Numbered from the stretch's first letter, positions 1-17,892 are shown. The stretch is 64,000 nucleotides of DNA from an uncultured Candidatus Obscuribacterales bacterium (GCA_964615655.1 CAZTQO010000018.1:854-64853); one strand, 5' to 3'. Numbers and translations: made by a program. Notes: generated by a model not told the origin, from the sequence alone.

Positions 1-2631
1 GCCGTGGATGAAGTCCAGGAGATCCACACGCTCAAGCAAGCGGTCGGTGCCCGGCTCGACGATCTCTCGCTCGGAGAGAATCATCTCGTGCAGGCGGTAG
101 ACCATGCGGAAGTGCTTGGGGACCTGGAACGGTCCATCATGGTGCTCCCAGACCGAACCCGGCATGCCCCAGATGAAGTCGTTCTTGCGAATCGGAGCCA
201 GCAGTTTGCTCACAAGCGGGAAGCGGTGCGAGAGACGCATCAGGTACATCTTGAAGCGCTGGCCGAGGAAGCCGTACCAGTCGGCGTGCATTCCGAGTTG
301 CAGGGTCGGGTGCTGCAGCAGATCTTCGGTCCACTGAATCGTGTGGATGCGTGCGATCTGCGCCACGTTCACCTTGCGCGCCATCTGGAACAAGTTCTCG
401 TCGTCCCAGTCCGGGTGGAAGTAGGCGTAGTGCTCGGCGATCGCGTTGTGCTCCATCACAAAGAGCCAGTGCAGGAAGCTCAGGAGCGCGTTGAAGTTGT
501 TGTTGAAACCGGTCTGGTCGATGCCGGCTTTTGAAGGATCTTCGGGCAGGCGCAGATCAGATCCGAGCCTCATCTTGCCTTGCTCAAACGAGCGCAGCGG
601 ATTGAGTTCGCTTTCGTCCGAGCCGTAAATTTGCCCCTGAATCCAGGCCACCGTCTTTTCATTGAGTGGCGTCGGGCGGCCGTTCTGGGTCAGGCGCGTG
701 TGGTCGACCGAGCTGCGGTCGATGCGGGCTTGATTTCCGGGCCAGTTCTCTTTTGGGTCGCGTGCCATCAGGTGAGGGCACTGGCTTACAGGGTCGCGCT
801 TGGTGTTGCCACCGAAGTTGTGGAACTGGAACTGAATCCAGCCACCGGCCATGTCGTTCAAGATCATGGCAGGAATCGTGATTTCGCGACCGTTGTCGTC
901 GAGTCGGCGCCAGCGGAGCCTGCCCACTTCACGAGCCGAAGGCGTAATGTTCTCCACGTCCGGTCGAACTTTCTTGGGAGGAATGTTCGAACCGAAACGA
1001 GTATTTGGAGTTCCCATTTGCGGGTTGTCCCTGTCGGACACCCAGCTGCCATCAGCTGTGATACAGTGCTTCGCTGTAGTCGGTTCTTTGCCGTATTCTT
1101 TGTTGTCGTTGGTCGCGTAGTCGTACGGGTCGGTGAGCGCGTTGGAGCGGTTGAAGCGGATTTTGGCAAGCAGGTAAAGCAGGCCGAGATAGGGCGGCCA
1201 CTTGTCCCAGCTGACCTTGCGGTTCCGGTCCCGCGAAAGCATCCGGTTCAGGGTTTCCATCACCCAGTAGAACATGTTCCACCAGACGTACTTGATCGGC
1301 CCGATGCCTTCGCGTCTGGACTTCGGGCGCCAGGCGCCGGTTGCGTCGGTGCCGTTGCCGGTTCCGTTGCTGTTGCTGTCGCTTTTCTTGCTGCCGAATC
1401 CGAATGGGCAGCCAGATGATCCGTCGGTTTTGTCGGTTTTGTCACTGTTCATACGGTTTTGTCCTTGCTTGGAAAAAAAACAGAAGCGCGTCTTCTTGCT
1501 CCGTTTGCCGCGGCGTCCGCTGCGCAGATCCTGGCTCGATTTGTATACGAGCAGGCGTGCGCGGTTGAGACTGCCGAGCGGGCGGAACCCATTTGCCGAG
1601 TTCCAGGGGTTGAACTCGAGGTTTTCGACCTGAGCCTGAGCTTCGAGAGCTTCAGCTGAGTCGAGATTTTGTTGCGGAATCACAATCTCGGCGATCGTGA
1701 GCAGTTCGGTCGGCCAGATCACCGAGCCGTCTTCAACGGGCGTGCTCTTCTCGTTTGCGAAGAACTGAACCTGGAACTTGAAAGTCACCGGTCCCTTCTT
1801 TAGGCGTTCGACCAGATCTTCACGCAAGTAGCTGTCCGAGGGCTGCATTTCGACGTCGCAGCTTTGCCCCGGGGCGATCTGGAAACGAACGGCCTGGTCG
1901 CCGAAAGCATATGCCGAGCGGCTGAAGTAAGTTTCGGTGCAGAGGCTCTTGACCTTGCGCTTGACCTGGCCAATTACGGTCCGGAACATGCGCACGGTTT
2001 CGAAAAGCCCGACTCCGAAGACAAGCCGGGGCAGAAGCAGGAGCTTGGAGCCCGAGCTTGCCTTTGCAAAAGTGATGAACTGCCTGGCATCGCGCGCATG
2101 ATTAGCCGGCCCGTTGGTGGCCAGGAAATCGTGAATCTCACCGGCGGGGGTAGAGACTCGAAGCGCGATACCACGCAGATCTTTGGCAGTGTCCGGCTTG
2201 ATCACACCGCCTGCGTTCGAAAAACGAATCGCAACAGGCATGGATGCGCCGGGCTGCAGGAAGCCGACCTGAAGCGCTTGCGGGATGTCTTCAAGCACGC
2301 GGAATTCGGCGTTGGCGATGCCTGCCTGAATTTTCGCGTGGAAAGCTCGCCCGAAAGAACAAGCCTTGCCTGCTTTCTTGTTGTTTTCCTGAACTTCGTT
2401 GATCTCGTCCATGGCTTGCTGAATGAATTCAGCTTCGGCTGCAGCTGAGCCGCCGAGAAAGCGCTCTTTCCAGCCGAGACCGAGGGGGTTCGTGCTTTGA
2501 GCTTGCTTCTTGCCGAAAAAGGTCTTGAACGGACAGCGAGATTCTGTCTGGTCTGGCGTACGCTTGCGACCCCAGAGTTTGCTTACAAGGACTGCCAGCA
2601 GAGCCAGAAGTCCCATGATTGCTGTACACAT
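1..2631 (-). CDS. Catalase-related hemoprotein fused in frame to an alpha-dioxygenase/cyclooxygenase-like heme peroxidase domain (partial; C-terminus lies beyond window start)
   Basis: Hand translation of the minus strand from ATG 2631-2629 (AGGAAGGAG about 8 nt upstream). N-terminal hydrophobic anchor MCTAIMGLLALLAVLV. Catalase-core motifs: GRAFHAK (2332-2352), RFSNAGG (2206-2226), DLRGIAL (2161-2181), RARLLVYKSS at the proximal-Tyr position (1534-1563). Peroxidase motifs: GGWIQFQFH (820-846), HWLFVMEHN (445-471), YRLH (88-99). The frame stays open to position 1, which explains its absence from the supplied track. The + strand ORFs listed here are shadows. Confidence 0.8.
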   Translation of the reverse strand, partial: MCTAIMGLLALLAVLVSKLWGRKRTPDQTESRCPFKTFFGKKQAQSTNPLGLGWKERFLGGSAAAEAEFIQQAMDEINEVQENNKKAGKACSFGRAFHAKIQAGIANAEFRVLEDIPQALQVGFLQPGASMPVAIRFSNAGGVIKPDTAKDLRGIALRVSTPAGEIHDFLATNGPANHARDARQFITFAKASSGSKLLLLPRLVFGVGLFETVRMFRTVIGQVKRKVKSLCTETYFSRSAYAFGDQAVRFQIAPGQSCDVEMQPSDSYLREDLVERLKKGPVTFKFQVQFFANEKSTPVEDGSVIWPTELLTIAEIVIPQQNLDSAEALEAQAQVENLEFNPWNSANGFRPLGSLNRARLLVYKSSQDLRSGRRGKRSKKTRFCFFSKQGQNRMNSDKTDKTDGSSGCPFGFGSKKSDSNSNGTGNGTDATGAWRPKSRREGIGPIKYVWWNMFYWVMETLNRMLSRDRNRKVSWDKWPPYLGLLYLLAKIRFNRSNALTDPYDYATNDNKEYGKEPTTAKHCITADGSWVSDRDNPQMGTPNTRFGSNIPPKKVRPDVENITPSAREVGRLRWRRLDDNGREITIPAMILNDMAGGWIQFQFHNFGGNTKRDPVSQCPHLMARDPKENWPGNQARIDRSSVDHTRLTQNGRPTPLNEKTVAWIQGQIYGSDESELNPLRSFEQGKMRLGSDLRLPEDPSKAGIDQTGFNNNFNALLSFLHWLFVMEHNAIAEHYAYFHPDWDDENLFQMARKVNVAQIARIHTIQWTEDLLQHPTLQLGMHADWYGFLGQRFKMYLMRLSHRFPLVSKLLAPIRKNDFIWGMPGSVWEHHDGPFQVPKHFRMVYRLHEMILSEREIVEPGTDRLLERVDLLDFIHG

Positions 2632-2665
2632 AAGCAGTTTTCTCCTTCCTGTGTGGTGAGATTTG

Positions 2666-2713
2666 AAAAAAACAGCAAGTCCCGCAAGCTGCTTTGAAGC
2701 GCTTATCGGGACT
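2666..2713 (-). promoter_or_regulatory. Terminator-like hairpin plus T7 tract about 35 nt upstream of the fusion-gene start (candidate attenuator, or late terminator of the upstream gene)
   Basis: Minus strand reads AGTCCCG-(22 nt)-CGGGACT, then TGCTG, then TTTTTTT (A7 at 2666-2672 on the + strand). The RBS and ATG 2631 follow. Confidence 0.3.
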
Positions 2714-3085
2714 GAGGGTGAGATTGATCTTGAGTTACCGCCGCAAGTGAATTGCGATTGCTTGAGTTGAAACTTGTCTTGTTGACTGGTTTTTCTTGCT
2801 TTACTTGCTTTGAGCGGAAATTGATAGGGTTACCTATTGGTAACAGTCTGCCGGGGGCTGAACACAAGCAAAAGTCACGGATGTGAAGCGTATTTTTGCC
2901 TAATCTGGGGATGTGGATTTAGCGCTAGCTACCGGTTGACTTAATTCTGCACTGGCTGGTCTGAAGCGATTTTGAAGTGAAAAGTCAGAGCGCTCTTTTT
3001 CTCTACAAAATCTGCCTGAATTTCCGAAATCTTGACAGCGCCTAACAGTTTAGTCCCCTGCTAGCTTTTGTTAATGCTGACAACC

Positions 3086-3103
3086 GTGAACACATGTGTT
3101 CAC
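3086..3103. promoter_or_regulatory. Perfect 18-bp palindrome GTGAACACATGTGTTCAC, candidate operator
   Basis: Exact inverted repeat (GTGAACACA/TGTGTTCAC) in the 550-bp non-coding gap between the M20 gene stop (3184) and the fusion-gene start (2631). Confidence 0.35.
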
Positions 3104-3183
3104 ATACGCTAGCTGGTGCAAGGTTGCGCAAAGCTAGATTGGTGCTGCTTTCAGTCTTTGAAATGAGACTTTTTGAAATAATT

Positions 3184-4365
3184 TCAGTCTTCCATTAATC
3201 TGAGAGCAGTTTCGGCAAGAATTGCCGGTCCAAGATAGAGACCGCTTTCGTCAATGTCGAAATCTGGACTGTGGTGGCTTCTGCGATAGTCTTTCATTTC
3301 GCCGCCCAGAAACATAAAGGCGCCGGGTGCGACTTCAGCAAGCATTGAAAAATCTTCAGACCAGGTTTTCAGCGGCAGGCTCACCACATTTGCTTCGCCT
3401 ATTAGATCAACTGCTGTTTTTTTTAAAATTTCTGCAATTTTCGGGTCGTTAACAGTTGGCGGGTAACCAAGCTCGTAATCGATTTTGTAATCAGCACCCA
3501 GTGCCCTTGCAAGTGAACATGCTTTTTCAACTTCTTCTCGCAGTTTTACTCTGACAGGCTCAGTGAAACTTCTTATGGTGCCTAAGAGCTCAACGCTGTC
3601 TGAAATTACGTTTCCTCTTGTGCTTGAACTTTGAATGGAGCCGATTGTAATTACTGCCGGTTCAAGTGCTGAAATGCGTCTTGAAACAATCTGCTGTATA
3701 GCGCTTACAACCTGGCAGGCCACGACAACAGAATCTACAGTGCTTTCAGGATAAGCTCCGTGACCGCCCTTGCCCTGTATAGTCACTCTGAATCCGTCGC
3801 AGGCAGCCATAACAGGTCCCGGCATGATTGCAACTTTGCCTGCCTCAAGTGATGAATCCATATGCAAGCCAATCACAGCTGAGACACCTTCCATGACTCC
3901 TTCTTCCACCATGCGAAATGCACCTGACTTACCTTCGCTGTCTGTGTCTTCTTCTGCAGGTTGCATGATCATTTTGAGTTTGCCAGCCAGGCTGTCCATT
4001 TGAGAAAGAAGTTTTGCAGTTGCAAGCCCGCAAGATACATGAGCGTCATGACCGCATGCGTGCATTACACCTTCATTTTTTGATTTATAGGGGCTCTTGT
4101 TGCTTTCCAGAATCGGCAGACCGTCCATGTCTGCTCTTACAGCAACTGTTTTTTTGCCGGCTCCAATTTCTGCTATTACCCCGGTTTTAGCAATTCCCTG
4201 TTTTACTGAAAAACCCAGGCTTTTAAGTTCGGCTGCAGCAAGCTTTGATGTTTCGCTTTCCTGAAAGCTCAGCTCGGGATGCTCGTGTAAATGGCGCCTG
4301 CGCTCGATTATTTCCTTTTCGAGTTCGCGCGCACGTGCAAGCATGTTCTGGTTTGAGGCTGGCAT
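3184..4365 (-). CDS. M20D-family amidohydrolase (N-acyl-L-amino acid amidohydrolase / hippurate hydrolase-like)
   Basis: 393 aa. MHACGHDAH metal-ligand motif, GKGGHGAYP, and length and layout typical of peptidase M20D. Confidence 0.85.
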   Translation of the reverse strand: MPASNQNMLARARELEKEIIERRRHLHEHPELSFQESETSKLAAAELKSLGFSVKQGIAKTGVIAEIGAGKKTVAVRADMDGLPILESNKSPYKSKNEGVMHACGHDAHVSCGLATAKLLSQMDSLAGKLKMIMQPAEEDTDSEGKSGAFRMVEEGVMEGVSAVIGLHMDSSLEAGKVAIMPGPVMAACDGFRVTIQGKGGHGAYPESTVDSVVVACQVVSAIQQIVSRRISALEPAVITIGSIQSSSTRGNVISDSVELLGTIRSFTEPVRVKLREEVEKACSLARALGADYKIDYELGYPPTVNDPKIAEILKKTAVDLIGEANVVSLPLKTWSEDFSMLAEVAPGAFMFLGGEMKDYRRSHHSPDFDIDESGLYLGPAILAETALRLMED

Positions 4366-4414
4366 TTTCTTTCCTGCTTTCTCGGATTTGTTTTTTTCGG
4401 TTCTTCAGTAGTTC

Positions 4415-4606
4415 TTAATCGGCAAAATAACCCTGGCGTTTTCCAGGTCCTGAGCTGCGGCTCGATGAAGCCAGTGCTTCTTCAACCATGCGACCGCCAA
4501 TTTTCAAAAGGGACTGAACAATGCATTCAATCTGGGCTTCTGTGAATTCAGCCTTTGTTTCTTCCATGTAGCGGCGAAAAATACCTTCTGCTTCTGATTT
4601 GAGCAT
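4415..4606 (-). CDS. Hypothetical small protein (63 aa)
   Basis: ORF with GAGGAAAG RBS before ATG 4606. Same strand as the M20 gene and immediately upstream of it. No recognisable domain. Confidence 0.45.
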   Translation of the reverse strand: MLKSEAEGIFRRYMEETKAEFTEAQIECIVQSLLKIGGRMVEEALASSSRSSGPGKRQGYFAD

Positions 4607-4873
4607 GACAAGCTTTCCTCAACTTCGTAGGGAAAAGCATTTTACCGCTGGTCCGAATAATAAGCAAAATAAGGGATAAAGGGTTCTTATCGAATACAGA
4701 GAGAATCAGGCTAGAAATGAGGCTGCGCTAACCGCGCCATTTGTCGGCAGCAGTGCTTGTTGATCCGGAAATCCGGTTTCGCTAGCTTTTGCGGGATGTA
4801 AAGCGCTGGAGGGGAGCTGAATTGTTAGGATCTTGATCTCTGTTTTGCTATCTTAATCTTGTATTTAGATTCT

Positions 4874-4937
4874 CCCCCTTAATCTGAAAACATCACCCCC
4901 TCAAGAAAAAACCCCCAGACCATTAACGTTTGCCCCC
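4874..4937. repeat. Four C5 tracts (CCCCCT/CCCCCA) spaced 16-22 nt apart in an AT-rich divergent promoter region
   Basis: C5 at 4874-4878, 4896-4900, 4912-4916 and 4933-4937. These are G5 runs on the minus strand. Confidence 0.6.
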
Positions 4938-5003
4938 TCTTTAGAGTAATATGTGCTCTGTGGTTGCAGCTTGCCTGAGGATTTTGTCTTGTCCGGGGTG
5001 CTT

Positions 5004-5672
5004 ATGAGTAAGGGATTCAGCCTGAAAGCTCTCTTTCTTGCTTTGCTTCAAAACGCCTTTTCCTGGTTTGTGCAGAAAAAAGCCGATAAGGGTCACCTTG
5101 AAGTTGAGCGCAAGTTTTCGATCAAACGTGAAGAAAGCGAGTCGCTTGCTTTGCGATTGCGTGAACTTGGCTTCAGCCCTTCAGGCAGCGTGACCATGAC
5201 CGACACATTCTTACCTGCCAGGCTTAAAGGCGAAATGATGAGGGTTCGTGATGAAGTCACAGCCGGCCATCCTGTTCGCAGCATCTTTACGCTGAAGAGC
5301 TGGGTGCATATGGACGGCGGTGGCAAGGAAAGGCAGGAAAGCGAAACTGAAGTCAACTCGTTGCTTAGAACGTTGGCAATTATAATCGCACGTTATGTGA
5401 GTGAGAGCGAGCTACTGAGCTTCAGCAAGGAAAGAGCTCTTTTCGAGGGCAGTCTTGACGGGAAGGAGCTTGTGGTCAGTATTGATCGTGTAAGTGGTCT
5501 GGGCAAGTACTCGGGACACTTTCTTGAAATAGAGTGCATTGTGCCGCTTGGAGCTGACCCGCAAGAGGCACGCGAGGTGATTTTTAAGCTTGTGGAGTTG
5601 CTGCTTGGTGCGCCGCGTGAAGATGTAAAACGCTCTTACCTGGAAATGCTGCAGCTTTCAAAACAGGCTTAG
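5004..5672 (+). CDS. CYTH-domain protein (CyaB-type class IV adenylyl cyclase / triphosphate tunnel metalloenzyme family)
   Basis: EVERKF signature at the domain start and a FLEIECI acidic strand near the C-terminus. The ORF is open from GTG 4953; ATG 5004 is the first ATG, so the start is uncertain. Confidence 0.7.
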   Translation: MSKGFSLKALFLALLQNAFSWFVQKKADKGHLEVERKFSIKREESESLALRLRELGFSPSGSVTMTDTFLPARLKGEMMRVRDEVTAGHPVRSIFTLKSWVHMDGGGKERQESETEVNSLLRTLAIIIARYVSESELLSFSKERALFEGSLDGKELVVSIDRVSGLGKYSGHFLEIECIVPLGADPQEAREVIFKLVELLLGAPREDVKRSYLEMLQLSKQA

Positions 5673-5757: not shown

Positions 5758-6002
5758 TACGCCTGGACTAAGTTTCTAAAACAATGCAGTTCAGACGCAT
5801 GGACATCATCTTCCGGGTGTCCGCGCGCCTGCACTGCAGGACTGGTATCGGCTGCGCTTCGCAAGAACTGCAGTCGAATTTCGACTCGCCTTTAGAGGCA
5901 AACTTGGCGGCTTGAAAGAGCAGCCATTTCTTTTTTCACTGCGGGCGCTCCTGTTGACGCCCGTAACAACCAACGCTGCAAATGCAGCAAAAGGAGAATG
6001 TT

Positions 6003-7454
6003 ATGAGCAAGAAGAATTCCACCAAGTTCGTGGTTGTGGACCACAGTGAACTCAGCGCTGCCGAAGTCGCCTTCGCCGAACAGTTCGGTTCCCGCGTCAT
6101 CGGCCAGCCCGCTGCTCTTCGCGTCGCCCAGCTGGCCTACAACATGGCGAGGAATCCGCTGCGCGACCGTAGCCGCCCGATCGGCATCTTCTACCTGGCC
6201 GGTCCGTCCCGTACGGGTAAGTCGCTGACCGGTGTCACGCTTGCCGAGATCTTCCACAACGACCCGGACGCGCTCACCCGCATCCAGGCGTCCGACTACA
6301 CCGAGGACCACCAGCTCCTGGAGCTCAAGGGTGCGCCTCCCAGCTACGTCGGCTTTCGCGATCCGAAAGATCCGAAGAACAAGCTGGCTGACCACGACAT
6401 CGACCCCTATTCGGTGGTGTCGCCTCACAACCTCAAGCGTGTTCGTCTGAACTCGCAGGAGGAAGTGGACATCGTCGTGATAGAGGAGTTCGAGAAGTCC
6501 AGCCCGGACTTTTACAAGTTCTGGATGGGCGTGTTCGACAAGGGTGTCGCGCGTCTGGGCAACGGTCAGATTGCCGACTTCCGCAACACCATCTTCATCC
6601 TGACCTCCAACATCGGCATGGACAGGCTGGAGAAGGAGCAGAAGGAGCCCATGGGTTTCATCACCAGTGCTCGCAAGACCACTGTCGTGGATGTCGAAAC
6701 CGTGGTGACCGAGGAGATGCGCCGGGCCTACAAGCCGGAGTTCCGCAACCGTCTTGACGCGGTTGTAGTCTTCCAGCCCTTCAACTCCGAGACGCTGCTT
6801 GCAATCGTCGACTCCGAAATTTCGCTGGTGCAGAAGCGCATCACCGAGACGATGGAAGCCGGCGAGGACTTCATGATCGAGGTGACTGCCGAGGCCAGGA
6901 AGTTCATGCTTCAGAGTGTCGACAACAACGTGGCCGAGCTCAAGCGGGTGATCAACCGCGACCTGCTCATGCCGCTGGGTCGTTTGCTTTCGACCGACAA
7001 ACTGAACGGTGGCGACATCGTGCGGGTTTCGGTTACAGGCGACGGCACGGCGCTTGAGTTCTCGGTGGCGGCCGGTGCCTATGGCGTGCCTGCTCACGAA
7101 GAGCAGATCGCCAAGATGGGCGTGCGCCATGGTGTCAACCTGGGCCTGCAGCGCGAGATCCGCAAGGCGGCGCTTGTCGACGGCAAGATCCAGGAGTGGA
7201 ACGTGATCGCGAGTGCTCCCGGCAAGAAGCAGAGCTTCAAGCTGGCTGCCGAGCTGCTCAACACCATGGAGAACGTGCTCGAGCTGGAAGTGACCCATGT
7301 GTCCTACCAGCGCGTGGCGCCGTATCTCTTCACGGTGATTCTGCGTGCGAACAAAGAGCAGGTGAATCTGCTTCAGCGTTTGCATGTCGAGGATGATCTC
7401 TCGGTCTACCCGATCGACCCGGAGCAGAAGAAGCTGCCGGCTCCGACCAAGTAA
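6003..7454 (+). CDS. Orphan AAA+ ATPase resembling the D2 module of ClpA/ClpB/ClpV, with an unassigned ~150-aa C-terminal region
   Basis: VIGQPAAL...RPIGIFYLAGPSRTGKS (Walker A). PPSYVGF. VVIEEFEKS in place of the usual DEIEKA Walker B. ILTSNIG (sensor 1). PEFRNRLDAVVVF. AAGGAG RBS 6 nt before ATG 6003 (the track start at 5982 is also possible). About 65% GC. Confidence 0.75.
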   Translation: MSKKNSTKFVVVDHSELSAAEVAFAEQFGSRVIGQPAALRVAQLAYNMARNPLRDRSRPIGIFYLAGPSRTGKSLTGVTLAEIFHNDPDALTRIQASDYTEDHQLLELKGAPPSYVGFRDPKDPKNKLADHDIDPYSVVSPHNLKRVRLNSQEEVDIVVIEEFEKSSPDFYKFWMGVFDKGVARLGNGQIADFRNTIFILTSNIGMDRLEKEQKEPMGFITSARKTTVVDVETVVTEEMRRAYKPEFRNRLDAVVVFQPFNSETLLAIVDSEISLVQKRITETMEAGEDFMIEVTAEARKFMLQSVDNNVAELKRVINRDLLMPLGRLLSTDKLNGGDIVRVSVTGDGTALEFSVAAGAYGVPAHEEQIAKMGVRHGVNLGLQREIRKAALVDGKIQEWNVIASAPGKKQSFKLAAELLNTMENVLELEVTHVSYQRVAPYLFTVILRANKEQVNLLQRLHVEDDLSVYPIDPEQKKLPAPTK

Positions 7455-8034: not shown

Positions 8035-8474
8035 GCCTCCCGGGAAAGTTGATAGTCGAATAATAAGCTAGTAGATCGTTCTGGCTCATGAATCAGCTTG
8101 TATTGTCCCGAGCCCACCTGCCCGAAGCAGTTTAAACGCTTGCAACCCTTGCGCAAATGTAAGCGCCTGGCCTGCTTGTGATAATGATGTTTGCGTTAAT
8201 TACTCCTGTTTTAGTGGGAATCTTACCAGCTGCCCACTGCGCCTGCCGTATCAGTGCCGGCTCCATGCGCGTAGGGTGAAGGCATATCAGTTCAAACCAA
8301 AGTATCAAGAGGATTCAAACAAAAAACCGGAGCTTTCAAGCATAACAAGTAAGAAGCTTTGATCCCAGAGATGTTCACGTCTTCAGGTTGGGTGTACCTT
8401 CCTGAACTCAGGTTTTCTTGCGAACAGTTAACAGCTTAAGCCAGGCCGAATGCCTGAGCGAAAGGAGCATTGCC

Positions 8475-9671
8475 ATGTTCACTCGATTGCTGAAACAAGT
8501 GTTTTTCCCTGAAGGGAAGCTTCCCAACAGCTTTCCCTGGACAGTGCAGACCGCCGGCAAGAAATACTTTGTCGGTCTCCTGCACTTCACCGCCGGTACC
8601 CTCGCGGTTCCGCTGCTGTTCATGGCCCTGGTCGGCGGGTTGCTGGTTTTTCCCAACCTGCGCGATGCACTGGCCAACCCGCAGACTCACTGCTATGTGC
8701 TTGCCTGCGCGGCTCTTGTGGGTGCTATCGCGAGCGCCTGCATCAATCTCTGGCGTCTTCACGGCCGCGACTTCGCTGCTGTCATGAAGGGCCTGGTCAA
8801 CGGCGCTTTCGTCTGCGTTGCGATCGGCGCGATTTTTGCGCTGGCGCTCCCGGCAGCCGTTAAGTTGATCGACCCGGTCTTCCCTCAGCTCTTGAGCTGG
8901 GTGGGTGCGCTGGTCGCCGACTCCAAGGGCTCTCCCAACATCACTTTCCAGATGTGGCTCAGCTTGCTGAGCTTTGTGATGGGCTTCGGGATGCAGCTGC
9001 GCTACATCGCAAAGGAGATGCGCAAAAACGGGCTTTCGCTTACAGAAGCGATGGCTCTTACTCTTAAGCCGCTGAAAGGCAGCTGGTGGGGTGCGACTCT
9101 CTTCAATCTGCTTGCGCCTGTGGCAATCGCCTACGGCTTCGTGCAGATTGTCGGCGAGTCGATTGTGTTTCTGATGGGACCCGCACACCAACCCACAGTC
9201 GAGCTTGCTCAACAGGCAACCGGCGGGAACTTCTTGCTCTTTGCCGTCATGGCTGTGGTTGGGGCTCCGATTTTCGAGGAGCTTGTTTTCCGCGGTTTCC
9301 TCTATCAGATTTTGCGTTCGTCTCTTGCCCGGCCGCTGGAGGCCTTCACCCCGCGTCAGTTGCCAGCCTGTGGTATCTGCCGCTTGTACGGACAGCTGAA
9401 GAACTTTGTGAATGGCTGGACGCACTGTGTTGCGGCCTTCATGCACCGGATCTTCGGCGGCAAGCGTGCAGAAATCAGTGCTATTGTGCTGAGCTCGCTT
9501 GCGTTTTCGCTCCTGCACATGCAATTCAACCCGACGACCCTGGTTCTGCTGTTCATGATGGGATGCGTTCAGGCGGAACTCTACCGCCGGACCGGCAGTC
9601 TCTACTGCGGCATGCTTCTGCATGCGGTGAACAACGGCATCGATGTCCTTAAGCTGGGTCTTGGTGGCTGA
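8475..9671 (+). CDS. CPBP-family intramembrane glutamic endopeptidase (CAAX protease / Abi family)
   Basis: Polytopic membrane protein with APIFEELVFRG (EExxxR), FSLLHM and LLHAVNN motifs. AAAGGAG RBS before ATG 8475 (the track ORF starts at 8418). Confidence 0.8.
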   Translation: MFTRLLKQVFFPEGKLPNSFPWTVQTAGKKYFVGLLHFTAGTLAVPLLFMALVGGLLVFPNLRDALANPQTHCYVLACAALVGAIASACINLWRLHGRDFAAVMKGLVNGAFVCVAIGAIFALALPAAVKLIDPVFPQLLSWVGALVADSKGSPNITFQMWLSLLSFVMGFGMQLRYIAKEMRKNGLSLTEAMALTLKPLKGSWWGATLFNLLAPVAIAYGFVQIVGESIVFLMGPAHQPTVELAQQATGGNFLLFAVMAVVGAPIFEELVFRGFLYQILRSSLARPLEAFTPRQLPACGICRLYGQLKNFVNGWTHCVAAFMHRIFGGKRAEISAIVLSSLAFSLLHMQFNPTTLVLLFMMGCVQAELYRRTGSLYCGMLLHAVNNGIDVLKLGLGG

Positions 9672-9902: not shown

Positions 9903-10733
9903 ATGCCGCCAAGAATCATTGCCGCAAGCAAGAATGGTCTGAAAATTTCGGCAAGTGTTTTGCTTGCCTCGTTTTTGCATCTGGCTGTGCTTTCCGGACT
10001 GGCTTTTGCAGATGATCTCTTAAGTGATCCGGATCGCATGATCCAGCAGCAAGAAAGCAGTAATACAGAAGCAATTCCAAAATGGACCAGGCGAATTGAA
10101 GAAGGACCGGATCAGATTTTTTTTCTTGCAGAAGCGGTGTCGGGCAAGAAGCTCAAGAACGAAACCTTTGATTTGCTGCGTGGTGTTACTGAGGTCGTAA
10201 TTGAGAAACAGGAAATTATTTTCAAGCGCATAGACAAAGAGGAGCTTAAAATTAGCAGTGATACTGAAAGTGGTGGCAAATTCTTCGACGATTGGGAAAA
10301 GAGCAAAACCAATCTTGAAGACAAGTTCGGTAGGCAGGGCAAAGAATTTCTCGAGAATATAAAGAGCGTGCATGTTTCCGGTGATCGAATTCAAGTTGAA
10401 CGCAATGGACCCGAAGAGCTTGTAGTTGAGCTTGGATCTAAAAAGCTCCATCCGGCGTTTGACCTTAGAGGTTTACGTTTCAAGCAAATAAGCATGCTTG
10501 TCGATCACAGCGGCGATTATCCTTGCTTAAAAGATATTCAAGGTGTCAGCGCCATTATTAAGGCGCCCGGACTGAGCTTTCCTGTGGAAGTAAAAGAATT
10601 CTGGAAGAGACGTCTCAAAAAAGACAATGAAATCAAAGTGGCTGTGAAAAATCCTGTTCCTGCAGCTGTGCGTGTTTTTCTTTTCATGCCTGCAATCTTG
10701 CGTTTTCATTTCAGTTTGCCCCGCAAAGAATGA
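9903..10733 (+). CDS. Hypothetical secreted protein
   Basis: 276 aa. N-terminal signal-like segment (ASVLLASFLHLAVLSGLAFA). No recognisable domain. Low GC. Confidence 0.5.
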   Translation: MPPRIIAASKNGLKISASVLLASFLHLAVLSGLAFADDLLSDPDRMIQQQESSNTEAIPKWTRRIEEGPDQIFFLAEAVSGKKLKNETFDLLRGVTEVVIEKQEIIFKRIDKEELKISSDTESGGKFFDDWEKSKTNLEDKFGRQGKEFLENIKSVHVSGDRIQVERNGPEELVVELGSKKLHPAFDLRGLRFKQISMLVDHSGDYPCLKDIQGVSAIIKAPGLSFPVEVKEFWKRRLKKDNEIKVAVKNPVPAAVRVFLFMPAILRFHFSLPRKE

Positions 10734-16401: not shown

Positions 16402-17892
16402 ATGACATCTCTCAATGTGCGCTTTCTGAGCGCTGATCCTGCTCGGCATCAGGCTGAGCTTATTTTAATTCCGGTTTTCGAGGCTGAAGTCGCCAGTGGC
16501 TCGCACGCGCTTGCAAGCAAGCTGCTTGCCGACCAGGCTGTACTCGAGGGCTTCAGCGGCAAGCATGCCCAGAGCATGAGCCATTATGCCGGTATCGGCA
16601 GTGCCCGTCGACTCTACTTCGGTCTGGGTGATGCCGGCAAGCTCGACGCCCGCAAGCTGTCGTCGGCTTTGCTTGCAGCTTTTGCTGAAGCGAAGCAGGC
16701 AAAGGCGCAGAGCCTGGGTCTGGTGATTCCGGATCTGGCGGCTTGCAAGCTGAGCGCCTACGACTTCGGGCGTGCAGTCGGTGAGGCTTCCGGCATCGCT
16801 GACTACGTCATGAACCACAAAAAGACGGCGCGTGGCGGTCACAAGCCGGAACTGCGCCTGGGCGAGCTTTCGCTCCTGGGTGAGGCCGCCAGCGACTCTG
16901 AATACGCTCGCGGTGTGGCTGCCGGCCAGGTTGTCGCCCGTGCGGTCAACATGGCTCGTGATCTCGTTACCGAGCCGCCGTCGGACATGACCCCCGCGGA
17001 GCTTGCTCGCCGGGCTCAGGAACTGGCCGACCAGTCCAACGGCGCTGTCGTTTGCCGGCTTTATCAGGAAGACGAGCTGAAGCGCATGGGCGCCGGTGCC
17101 TTCCTGGCTGTGTCGCGCGGTTCCGATGAGAAGCCGGTGCTGATCGAGCTTTCTTATGAGCCGAAGGACGCCGACCCCGAGGTGCTGCTTGCTCTGGTGG
17201 GCAAGTCGGTCACATTCGACTCGGGCGGTTATGACATGAAGCCCTCTGCCGGCATGCGCACGATGAAGTGCGACATGGCGGGCGGCGCTGCCACGCTTGC
17301 TGCCATGCAGGCGATTGCGGCTCTGGCTCTGCCCGTTCGCGTGAAGGTGCTGATGGCCGCCACCGAGAACCTGGTGAACGGCAAGGCTTACAAGCCGGGT
17401 GACGTGCTGACCAGCATGGCCGGGCTCACGATCGAGGTGGACAACACCGACGCCGAAGGTCGCCTGACCATGGCGGATGCGATCGAACATGCCCGCCGCA
17501 AGGGCGCCACTCACATCGTCGACGTGGCCACGCTCACGGGTGCCATTCGAGCGGCGCTCGGTTCGGTCGGCGCTGGTGCTTTCGGCAACACGCCCGAGTT
17601 TACGAAGCAAGTGATCGCAGCCGGTGCAGCCGGTGGCGAGCTCTACTGGGAGCTACCGCTCTGGGACGAGCTGGCCAGTGCCAACGACTCCAAGATCGCC
17701 GACATCAAGAACTCCGGTGGTGACGCCGGTGCCGGTTCGATCACGGCAGCCCACTTCCTGAAGCGCTTCGCCGGCGACACTCCCTGGGTTCACCTGGATA
17801 TCGCCGCGGTTGCCTTCAAGCAAGATCAGGGCACCGGCTGGGGTGTTCGCACTCTGGTCGAGCTGGTGCGCTCTTTTGCCAGCGCCAGCTGA
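16402..17892 (+). CDS. pepA: Leucyl aminopeptidase (peptidase M17)
   Basis: 496 aa. VGKSVTFDSGG, MKCDMAGGA and the NTDAEGRL signature. About 63% GC. Confidence 0.9.
   Translation: MTSLNVRFLSADPARHQAELILIPVFEAEVASGSHALASKLLADQAVLEGFSGKHAQSMSHYAGIGSARRLYFGLGDAGKLDARKLSSALLAAFAEAKQAKAQSLGLVIPDLAACKLSAYDFGRAVGEASGIADYVMNHKKTARGGHKPELRLGELSLLGEAASDSEYARGVAAGQVVARAVNMARDLVTEPPSDMTPAELARRAQELADQSNGAVVCRLYQEDELKRMGAGAFLAVSRGSDEKPVLIELSYEPKDADPEVLLALVGKSVTFDSGGYDMKPSAGMRTMKCDMAGGAATLAAMQAIAALALPVRVKVLMAATENLVNGKAYKPGDVLTSMAGLTIEVDNTDAEGRLTMADAIEHARRKGATHIVDVATLTGAIRAALGSVGAGAFGNTPEFTKQVIAAGAAGGELYWELPLWDELASANDSKIADIKNSGGDAGAGSITAAHFLKRFAGDTPWVHLDIAAVAFKQDQGTGWGVRTLVELVRSFASAS

Follow-up and report, generated by a model that had tools for sequence, protein, structure and literature searches.

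A putative membrane-tethered protein joining a mini-catalase and an α-dioxygenase-like heme domain in an uncultured Candidatus Obscuribacterales bacterium

At the edge of a 64,000-nucleotide stretch of DNA from an uncultured Candidatus Obscuribacterales bacterium (GCA_964615655.1, CAZTQO010000018.1:854-64853; the whole stretch is called the window below) lies a minus-strand, probably chromosomal gene for what would be a two-heme, membrane-tethered protein, in which a catalase-related domain is joined to an α-dioxygenase-like domain. The order of its parts, a membrane helix, a catalase fold, a linker and an α-dioxygenase-like domain, can be assigned with great confidence. The function we infer from sequence, and we consider it rather probable that the two domains form a coupled pathway, in which the dioxygenase (DOX) would make a fatty-acid hydroperoxide and the mini-catalase would consume it. 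The features on which this interpretation rests are the following (positions counted from the first letter of the window).

1-2631, minus strand: open reading frame (ORF) of 877 codons, 5'-complete, with its 3' end off the window edge (stop-free translation)
2642-2650, minus strand: Shine-Dalgarno sequence AGGAAGGAG, 10 nt 5' of ATG 2631-2629 (direct sequence reading)
2569-2631, minus strand: N-terminal hydrophobic helix (residues 1-21), then K18/R22/K23/R24 (Kyte-Doolittle, AlphaFold2 (AF2))
1516-2469, minus strand: predicted mini-catalase heme domain, residues ~55-372 (PF00199, 3e4w alignment, AF2, Foldseek)
2343-2338, minus strand: distal Phe97-His98 of the catalase domain
2115-2113, minus strand: distal Asn173 of the catalase domain
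1557-1555, minus strand: Arg359 of the catalase domain
1545-1543, minus strand: proximal heme ligand Tyr363 of the catalase domain
1306-1515, minus strand: disordered inter-domain linker rich in K, S, G and N, residues 373-442 (AF2; a stop and spacer lie here in L004, L009 and L012)
1-1305, minus strand: predicted α-DOX-like heme domain, residues 443-877, the N-terminal ~two-thirds, with the rest off the window (PF03098, α-DOX, Foldseek)
822-820, minus strand: distal His604 of the DOX domain
345-343, minus strand: His763 of the DOX domain
99-97, minus strand: catalytic Tyr845 of the DOX domain
90-88, minus strand: proximal ligand His848 of the DOX domain

A sequence-only reading of the window had proposed one uninterrupted minus-strand ORF from ATG 2631 to the edge, and translation bears this out: from ATG 2631-2629 to base 1 no stop occurs over 877 codons. 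The start is credible, because the strong ribosome-binding site AGGAAGGAG lies 10 nt upstream and the N-termini of the orthologs align in register. The 21 best protein clusters, of which the named ones are Candidatus Obscuribacterales, are 1320-1470 amino acids long and show 47-70% identity over 94-100% of the window ORF, which puts the share of the protein held by the window at ~63% of ~1380 residues.

The Pfam search placed both halves of the protein above the cut-off of 25 bits, as had been anticipated: residues 95-192 match Catalase (PF00199; E=3.4e-13, 49.9 bits) and residues 526-796 match An_peroxidase (PF03098; E=1.3e-33, 116.8 bits). A lipoxygenase domain as C-terminal partner found no match in this search, the partner being An_peroxidase. 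Among PDB sequences, the α-DOXs of Arabidopsis and rice match residues 466-866 at E=1e-32 and cyclooxygenase (COX) only at E ~0.01, while Foldseek aligned the truncated DOX part with 4hhs at E=5e-17. Of the three relatives suggested earlier, α-DOX, linoleate diol synthase and COX, it is α-DOX that proved to be the closest with a solved structure, and not COX. The motifs listed for this half, including HWLFVMEHNAIA and the Tyr-x-x-His spacing, were all recovered (ADGSW..NPQMG..FGSN at residues 526-549, GGWIQFQFHNF at 596-606, HWLFVMEHNAIA at 721-732 and VYRLH at 844-848). In the alignment with α-DOX, the segments around the distal His (GGWIQFQFHNF/ASWIQFMIHDW), around His763 (ARIHTIQWT/AKIHTIDWT) and around the catalytic Tyr (VYRLH/VYRMH) correspond, with Tyr845 standing three residues ahead of the proximal His848 in the Y-R-L-H motif. 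The sequence-only reading had left room for the heme ligands to be missing from a full alignment; all of them are intact together with the catalytic Tyr, His604, His763, Tyr845 and His848 being invariant in 21 sequences (the window and 20 orthologs) and Tyr845 and His848 also in a larger set of 103, where His604 is conserved to at least 90%.

The C-terminal third of the protein is described from orthologs only. In the ortholog P0004 the complete DOX domain runs to ~residue 1046 and aligns with residues 51-635 of Arabidopsis α-DOX at E=1e-57. It includes an Arg-Arg pair, off the window in our sequence, which lies in 'NAPRRVKSNRHLT' of P0004 and aligns with 'MATRRLEADRFFT' of Arabidopsis and 'MASRRLEADRFFT' of rice; the pair is at least 90% conserved in the 103 sequences, and in rice α-DOX it reportedly binds the carboxylate of the fatty acid beside the catalytic Tyr. 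The DOX part of P0043, a member of the clade with a DOX only, matches by structure α-DOX at E=1e-29 (TM 0.77-0.80), peroxidases at 1e-18 and COX at 1e-14, with cyanobacterial and Dictyostelium peroxidases as the next-best structural matches after α-DOX. Sequence and model together identify the domain as a predicted α-DOX-like member of the peroxidase-cyclooxygenase superfamily. The model of the truncated part in the window is of moderate AF2 confidence, and the whole model has a predicted template-modeling score (pTM) of 0.54.

For the N-terminal half, the best match among PDB sequences is MAP-2744c (3e4w; residues 95-373, E=3.4e-11), and the alignment pairs RAFHAK with RALHAK and RARLLVYKSS with RFRTLVYSAS, with His98, Arg359 and Tyr363 in register; true catalases match by sequence only over residues 95-192 (E ~1e-8). 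In the AF2 model, made from the 103-sequence alignment, the predicted local distance difference test (pLDDT) reaches 95-98 over residues 55-370, and Foldseek aligned the fold with 3e4y at E=6e-17 (target TM 0.77 over 301 residues). MAP-2744c and α-DOX were the joint best matches in Foldseek, followed by chanoclavine synthase, coral allene oxide synthase and true catalases. The catalase motifs given in the sequence-only reading are all present (RAFHAK at residues 95-100, RFSNAGG at 136-142, DLRGIAL at 151-157 and RARLLVYKSS at 357-366), except that the spacer between RFSNAGG and DLRGIAL measures 8 residues and not 10. His98, Arg359 and Tyr363 are invariant in the 21 sequences and Asn173 nearly so; within the wider family, equivalents of the former three occur in at least 222 of 248 domains and the distal Asn is retained in 193 of 238 members. 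Both sequence and model point to a MAP-2744c-type mini-catalase, that is, a minimal core of ~320 residues that has none of the extra domains of true catalases. A true monofunctional catalase was considered and ruled out: Phe97 stands where Val is expected, and the domain has ~320 residues against ~480 or more for a catalase subunit.

The residue before the distal His bears on the chemistry that may be expected. In work from the Brash laboratory, Thr-His is reported to set apart the catalase relatives whose substrates are fatty-acid hydroperoxides, and Val-His the true catalases. The hallmark Thr of allene oxide synthases and lyases is found neither in the window, which has Phe97-His98, nor in any of the 248 family domains, where the position is occupied by Phe (163), Leu (38), Gln (15) or Val (4). 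Given Phe-His instead of Thr-His, the hydroperoxide-transforming role is therefore an analogy rather than a matter of class membership: the earlier proposal of such a role was right about a catalase-related hemoprotein, but the Thr-His class that is known for this role is not matched. The residue pattern lowers the likelihood of an allene-oxide-synthase or lyase-type enzyme and leaves the idea that the domain uses its partner's hydroperoxide unweakened. The catalase domain alone, used as query in an exhaustive search, retrieved 2874 representative clusters at E<=1e-3, of which 1656 reach E<=1e-10. Within the best 150 of these relatives, 20 are at least 880 residues long and 18 of the 20 have the domain at the N-terminus, where fusions should have it; most of the others are stand-alone proteins of 320-380 residues.

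The association between the two domains extends well beyond the window. PF00199 and PF03098 occur together in 81 of the 120 best clusters, which come from Actinobacteria, Proteobacteria, Verrucomicrobia and other phyla, and most of these double-domain clusters are of a short soluble type of 940-1000 residues (Mycobacterium, Salipiger, Beggiatoa, Verrucomicrobia, Thermomicrobiales, Thermoleophilaceae, Streptosporangiaceae and others). The architecture had been put forward as unrecognised; this stands as far as the literature is concerned, in which our searches found no published characterization of a catalase-α-DOX fusion, but it does not hold for the databases, where the combination is common. 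A scan of GTDB species genomes yielded 35 loci, the best of them 70% identical, on which separate catalase and DOX tblastn queries were run. The catalase part accompanies this DOX clade in 13 of the loci, all from Obscuribacterales or Melainabacteria, and one locus (L027) has a separate catalase-like gene near the DOX gene. For four of the five stand-alone mini-catalases that were looked up, an An_peroxidase gene is adjacent or two genes off, in either order, and in one such locus a DOX gene of 1195 codons begins 4 nt past the catalase stop. We read the mini-catalase/DOX pair as a widespread conserved module, of which fusion would be one state. Considering that the genes are fused or adjacent in Obscuribacterales and that four of the five stand-alone relatives lie beside an An_peroxidase gene, these states support a functional coupling of catalase and DOX.

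In the coupled pathway that we favor, a peroxide would oxidize the DOX heme, which would generate a radical at Tyr845; the radical would take a hydrogen from a free fatty acid, and addition of O2 would give the fatty-acid hydroperoxide. The attack would most likely be at C-2, because of the α-DOX-like Arg-Arg pair and because α-DOX is the nearest relative. The heme of the tethered mini-catalase would then use the hydroperoxide as its oxidizing substrate, either by reduction, to a 2-hydroxy acid, or by rearrangement or cleavage, so that the labile intermediate would be kept unreleased at the cytoplasmic face of the membrane. A tyrosyl-radical mechanism is common to α-DOX, COX and the fungal DOXs (PMC13049297).

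Several points weigh against this pathway. The placement of the catalase and DOX domains relative to each other is uncertain in the AF2 model, as the pTM value already indicates, and identity between the DOX domain and plant α-DOX is no more than ~25-28%, which makes the position of oxygenation uncertain. In other loci of the DOX clade (Elusimicrobiota, Xanthobacteraceae, Rokubacteria, Planctomycetota and one Melainabacteria) the 10 kb around the DOX gene hold no catalase gene; since this is the case for most DOX-clade loci outside the Obscuribacterales, the DOX does not depend on a catalase partner. The neighbors in the window (an M20 peptidase, a CYTH protein and an AAA ATPase) are uninformative on lipids. 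The distal His is preceded by Phe, and in none of the 248 family domains by Thr, which is the hallmark of those catalase relatives whose substrates are fatty-acid hydroperoxides; moreover MAP-2744c, the solved relative, is said to be a general organic-hydroperoxide peroxidase. For every member of the group, finally, the case for a coupled activity is made from sequence.

Some of the same observations could be taken to mean that the mini-catalase is not a pathway enzyme at all but a controller of peroxide tone or a protector, which scavenges H2O2 or lipid hydroperoxides in the vicinity of the DOX heme and so limits suicide inactivation of the DOX or gates the peroxide-dependent activation of its Tyr radical, the DOX product being released, for example as a Cn-1 aldehyde formed by spontaneous decarboxylation. 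We hold this to be on the unlikely side. It agrees with the catalase-type His98 and Asn173 at a distal site that has no Thr-His, the Asn being the residue kept in most of the family, with the occurrence of DOX-clade homologs in many phyla without a catalase partner, and with MAP-2744c, the closest solved structure to the catalase domain and reportedly a general peroxidase. However, the structure paper on MAP-2744c reportedly describes a peroxidase that prefers organic hydroperoxides and has negligible catalase activity, and the Val of true catalases is replaced by Phe or Leu. Furthermore, the two genes are repeatedly fused or tightly adjacent (4 nt apart, or overlapping in an ATGA) in unrelated lineages, an arrangement more typical of enzymes that act one after the other in a pathway.

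The segments outside the two heme domains hold a further set of features that concern both the cellular location of the protein and the origin of the fusion.

2527-2538, minus strand: Cys-Pro motif R-C-P-F, residues 32-35, in the disordered segment before the catalase domain (sequence)
1473-1480, minus strand: T8 run (coding strand) inside the linker, found in the window alone among 14 loci
1450-1466, minus strand: putative relic DOX start, with AAGGA (1466-1462), 9 nt, and ATG (1452-1450, Met394, 'MNSDK') (sequence)
1399-1413, minus strand: second Cys-Pro motif G-C-P-F-G, residues 407-411, in the linker (sequence)

A hydrophobic anchor had been proposed for the first ~25 residues, in agreement with which residues 1-19 are strongly hydrophobic (Kyte-Doolittle 2.19) and AF2 predicts a helix over residues 2-21; P0008 and P0019 have a matching N-terminal hydrophobic feature. 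The helix is probably a membrane tether of the signal-anchor type, and by the positive-inside rule the enzyme domains should face the cytoplasm. A Sec signal peptide was rejected, by inference, because the n-region carries no charge and the positive residues come only after the hydrophobic part. In the orthologs the DOX domain is followed by two hydrophobic hairpins (four membrane helices) and then by a further domain of 120-250 residues at the C-terminus (residues ~1046-1388 of P0004 and 618-1001 of P0043). P0043 was modeled as one confident unit (pLDDT 84, pTM 0.88) with four helices of 35-40 residues and a folded tail. Positive loops after each C-terminal hairpin, together with the cluster after the N-terminal helix, suggest that all soluble modules are cytoplasmic.

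The tail shows a faint likeness to caleosins, the plant members of which are hydroperoxide-dependent peroxygenases. Seven of 12 C-terminal tails match PF05042 below threshold (best E=1e-4; P0043 scores 18.6 bits against a cut-off of 27), and hhalign gave E=0.097 for the tail against a putative AtCLO1 sequence that itself matches PF05042 at 1e-75. A profile search of the tail against PDB sequences returned only chance-level EF-hand and globin matches. By eye, the heme His of caleosin (LQQH) reads Arg (LQKR) in P0043.

The two Cys-Pro motifs sit in the two disordered segments, one ahead of each heme domain. A Cys-Pro dipeptide near residues 26-38 is found in 13 of the 21 long-type orthologs (P0001-P0021), in a region of which residues 21-33 have a pLDDT below 50. 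A motif like [GR]-C-P-[FVM]-[GH] is found in the linker of 20 of these 21 and in none of the short-type fusions, and in the alignment of the window with 20 orthologs C408 and P409 reach a conservation of at least 90%. Both motifs, R-C-P-F and G-C-P-F-G, resemble heme-regulatory motifs. An extended version of the coupled pathway would turn the protein into a membrane-embedded machine of three modules (mini-catalase, α-DOX-like domain, and hairpin anchor with caleosin-like tail), in which the catalase-fold heme performs a hitherto undescribed reaction on the DOX product, be it a 2-hydroperoxy fatty acid or another, the Cys-Pro motifs serve as switches for heme sensing or loading, and fused and unfused states interconvert in evolution, possibly even within a population by way of the T8 run. 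Taken as a whole this is decidedly unlikely; if true, it would offer a natural experiment on substrate channeling between two hemes.

The linker itself seems to preserve traces of how the fusion came about. It had been described as ~70 residues rich in K, S, G and N, a description that residues 373-442 fit, and it is predicted to be disordered, with pLDDT values of 30-37, thus below 50, over residues 378-432. The frame is continuous from catalase to DOX in the window and in L001, L002, L008 and L033, and it is split in L004, L009 and L012, where the catalase ORF ends with '...LRKGR*' and is followed by a spacer and a separate DOX ORF. The separate DOX genes begin with 'MNDSPKDD' (L004) or 'MTDLPKDD' (L009), the protein P0030 likewise begins with 'MNDSPKDD', and the counterpart of 'MNSDK' in L001 is 'MNSEK'. 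Considering that a relic AAGGA-N9-ATG and, in the +1 frame, an ATGA overlap persist in the linker, the fusion appears to have arisen by loss of the stop between adjacent, formerly coupled catalase and DOX genes and to have kept the footprint of it; the linker would formerly have been the intergenic spacer and the 5' end of the DOX gene. A 1-nt indel in the T8 run would close the catalase ORF at, or just past, the internal ATG: with one T less the catalase frame meets a TGA that overlaps ATG 1452-1450 (ATGA), and with one T more it ends 4 codons later. The fused ORF is thus one indel away from a two-gene operon, and slippage or internal initiation could give both forms.

The same run raises the question whether the window really holds two separate, translationally coupled genes, the single ORF being due to a one-base assembly or sequencing error in T8 at 1473-1480, or else both forms being made by slippage or by initiation at Met394. 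Among the loci compared only the window has this run, which sits precisely at the junction of the two domains; its T7 and T9 versions would end the catalase frame on the overlapping TGA or 4 codons on, AAGGA stands 9 nt ahead of ATG 1452-1450, and split versions exist in L004, L009 and L012. Yet the closest relative, L001 (68% amino acid identity), has a homologous linker in frame ('..FFSQKGTTMNSEK..'), L002 and L033 are in-frame fusions as well, and none of these three has a homopolymer run. The residues on either side of T8 in the fused frame, FFS-KQG in the window, match FFS-QKG in L001, and ~20 independent assemblies yield fused proteins of 1320-1470 residues. We take the fusion as real, with a small chance of it being otherwise. 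Most improbable of all is that the second domain is a conventional heme peroxidase, in a two-headed membrane enzyme for peroxide detoxification without an oxylipin role: its An_peroxidase membership in Pfam, the NCBI names of the orthologs ('peroxidase family protein' or 'catalase') and the cyanobacterial and Dictyostelium peroxidases among the next-best structural matches would fit, but α-DOX is by far the best match in sequence and structure, conservation extends to the Arg-Arg pair, all 103 sequences of the larger set keep Y-R-L-H, in which Tyr845 stands three positions ahead of the proximal His, and Phe occupies the site before the distal His where mammalian peroxidases have a functional Asp.

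The surveyed loci contain some further arrangements of the pair. On a 7.8-Mb metagenome chromosome (L018, OW818684.1) a separate catalase-like gene (1705-2712) lies ~8 kb upstream of the DOX gene, and directly before the DOX gene (10004-10234) there is a remnant with the last ~75 residues of the catalase domain only, which may represent a decayed fusion. In L036 a protein with FHA and LCAT-type lipase/acyltransferase domains (3211-4899) is encoded between an An_peroxidase gene of α-DOX size and a stand-alone mini-catalase gene, and it is possible that it supplies the fatty-acid-releasing step for the pair. Three unrelated metagenome contigs encode, next to a stand-alone mini-catalase, a conserved protein of ~450 residues that has no Pfam match (L036, 6122-7510, minus strand; L039, 1951-3297, plus strand; L041, 3880-5232, plus strand, and 3-662; 51-58% identity among the copies). 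In L039 the catalase stop and the start of this gene overlap. The protein, of which the window has no copy, is a possible third member of the module.

Upstream of the fusion gene, the window encodes an M20 peptidase (3184-4365), a CYTH protein (4953-5672) and an AAA_2 ATPase (5982-7454), which are syntenic with L001 and L002, both from Obscuribacterales metagenome-assembled genomes, at 69-80% amino acid identity. The downstream neighbors in orthologous loci (glutaminase-ankyrin, DUF4440, glucoamylase, TctA) showed neither conservation nor a link to lipids. The 552-bp intergenic region ahead of the gene holds a perfect 18-bp palindrome, GTGAACACA|TGTGTTCAC, at 3086-3103, ~80 nt past the stop of the M20 peptidase gene and ~455 nt upstream of the fusion-gene ATG, and a second, imperfect inverted repeat at 2968-3012; they could be an operator or hairpin. 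A promoter/terminator scan of 2500-3300 gave no terminator and two weak promoter-like sites at chance level, an Rfam search of 1-5000 returned no match, and neither did an NCBIfam profile search of the ORF protein.

The locus had also been described as much more GC-rich than its surroundings and therefore as acquired. The excess is real but moderate: the ORF has a GC content of 0.579 (0.727 at third codon positions, GC3) against a window mean of 0.495 (sd 0.043, 1-kb windows), and three other genes in the first 18 kb (5982-7454, 8418-9671 and 16402-17892) have equal or higher values (GC 0.58-0.63, GC3 0.71-0.81). Composition over these 18 kb is a mosaic that changes gene by gene. Every Obscuribacterales ortholog examined shows the excess (gene 0.60-0.63, flanks 0.50-0.60), and the Elusimicrobiota and Xanthobacteraceae loci do not (gene and flanks both 0.61-0.69). 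Recent horizontal acquisition is ruled out by the conserved synteny and by the GC excess, which are common to the orthologous loci, and for the same reason any transfer must have been ancient. The pattern is consistent with a gene-specific codon bias, or with an old transfer out of a GC-rich lineage that has since been ameliorated only in part.

Natural fusions reveal which enzymes cooperate. Chemistry of the catalase fold on substrates other than H2O2 is known mainly from lipoxygenase partners, with Nostoc as the case of a neighbor of a COX-like dioxygenase. Through its repeated fusion with, or adjacency to, α-DOX-like genes, the mini-catalase family, with its 1656 representative clusters at E<=1e-10, gains a substrate hypothesis, namely the hydroperoxide of the DOX partner, and the finding points to an unexplored route of bacterial fatty-acid oxidation that includes the non-photosynthetic sisters of the cyanobacteria. 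The fused and split orthologs form ready-made constructs for tests of channeling. In addition, α-DOX enzymes already serve in the production of fatty aldehydes (PMC9305512, PMC8720084), and partner domains able to redirect the hydroperoxide could find a practical application. The lead is one from sequence; it fits a principle that is already known and is not unique to the window.

Compared with the systems that have been described, the window protein combines familiar parts in a different manner. The fatty-acid α-DOXs of plants and cyanobacteria (Arabidopsis α-DOX1, 4hhr/4hhs; rice, 4kvj) are the best matches of its second domain in sequence and structure and share the distal His, the equivalent of His763, the Tyr and proximal His of Y-R-x-H and, as seen in the orthologs, the Arg-Arg pair. 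The solved chains, of 621-652 residues, differ in having no N-terminal mini-catalase or membrane helix and no C-terminal extension of ~350-400 residues with four membrane helices, such as the orthologs carry. A survey of α-DOXs trimmed the N-terminal extensions (alignment positions 0-368) and did not describe them (PMC8720084). MAP-2744c, a 33-kDa protein of Mycobacterium avium ssp. paratuberculosis (3e4w/3e4y), shares the minimal catalase core, the distal motif R-A-x-H-A-K, in which x is Leu there and Phe here, both hydrophobic, and the proximal motif R-x-x-x-Y. It is stand-alone and soluble and its aligned segment has no counterpart of Asn173, whereas the domain in the window is tethered and fused to a DOX.

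Three known systems pair a hydroperoxide-making dioxygenase with a consumer of its product. In the catalase-lipoxygenase fusions, the catalase domains of which carry Thr-His at the distal site, the order of the domains is equal to that in the window, a catalase fold at the N-terminus and a dioxygenase at the C-terminus. The partner there is a non-heme-iron lipoxygenase, whereas the partner in the window is a heme DOX and the distal site is Phe-His. The coral allene oxide synthase-lipoxygenase (1u5u/3dy5), the synthase of which is a structural match of our catalase domain in Foldseek, belongs to this group, as do examples from Anabaena and Acaryochloris according to PMC11719350. Closer in its dioxygenase is the linoleate 10S-DOX of Nostoc punctiforme, which works with a catalase-related 10S-hydroperoxide lyase from a separate gene (Brash et al. 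2014, cited in PMC13049297), so that a DOX of the COX superfamily is paired with a catalase-related consumer of its hydroperoxide. Compared by description only, that pair differs in its separate genes and in a DOX described as COX-like rather than α-DOX-like. The wording 'catalase-heme dioxygenase fusion protein' in PMC11719350 appears to be a loose reference to the Nostoc pair. The fungal fusions of a DOX and a cytochrome P450 (linoleate diol synthases and 8R-, 9R- and 9S-DOX-allene oxide synthases) are likewise di-heme proteins, in which the hydroperoxide made by a COX-superfamily DOX is transformed by the fused second heme (PMC13049297). Their second heme domain is a C-terminal P450, in contrast to the N-terminal catalase fold found here.

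The nearest architectural relatives are the short-type fusions of ~940-1000 residues, such as P0104 of Mycobacterium sp. and P0091 of Salipiger mangrovisoli, which have the same domains in the same order and a catalase domain that is 40-52% identical; our searches found no published characterization of them. They are soluble proteins without hydrophobic segments, with a 14-residue linker and with neither a Cys-Pro motif nor the C-terminal extension, and they are ~30-36% identical overall; the DOX domain of P0104 is much nearer to plant α-DOX (E=1e-105). The fusion of a catalase-fold domain to a heme DOX is the missing combination among the pairs of hydroperoxide maker and consumer, visible in the databases and without a describing paper among those that we found. 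To this combination the Obscuribacterales version adds the membrane embedding, the long disordered linker with its Cys-Pro motif and the extra C-terminal domain.

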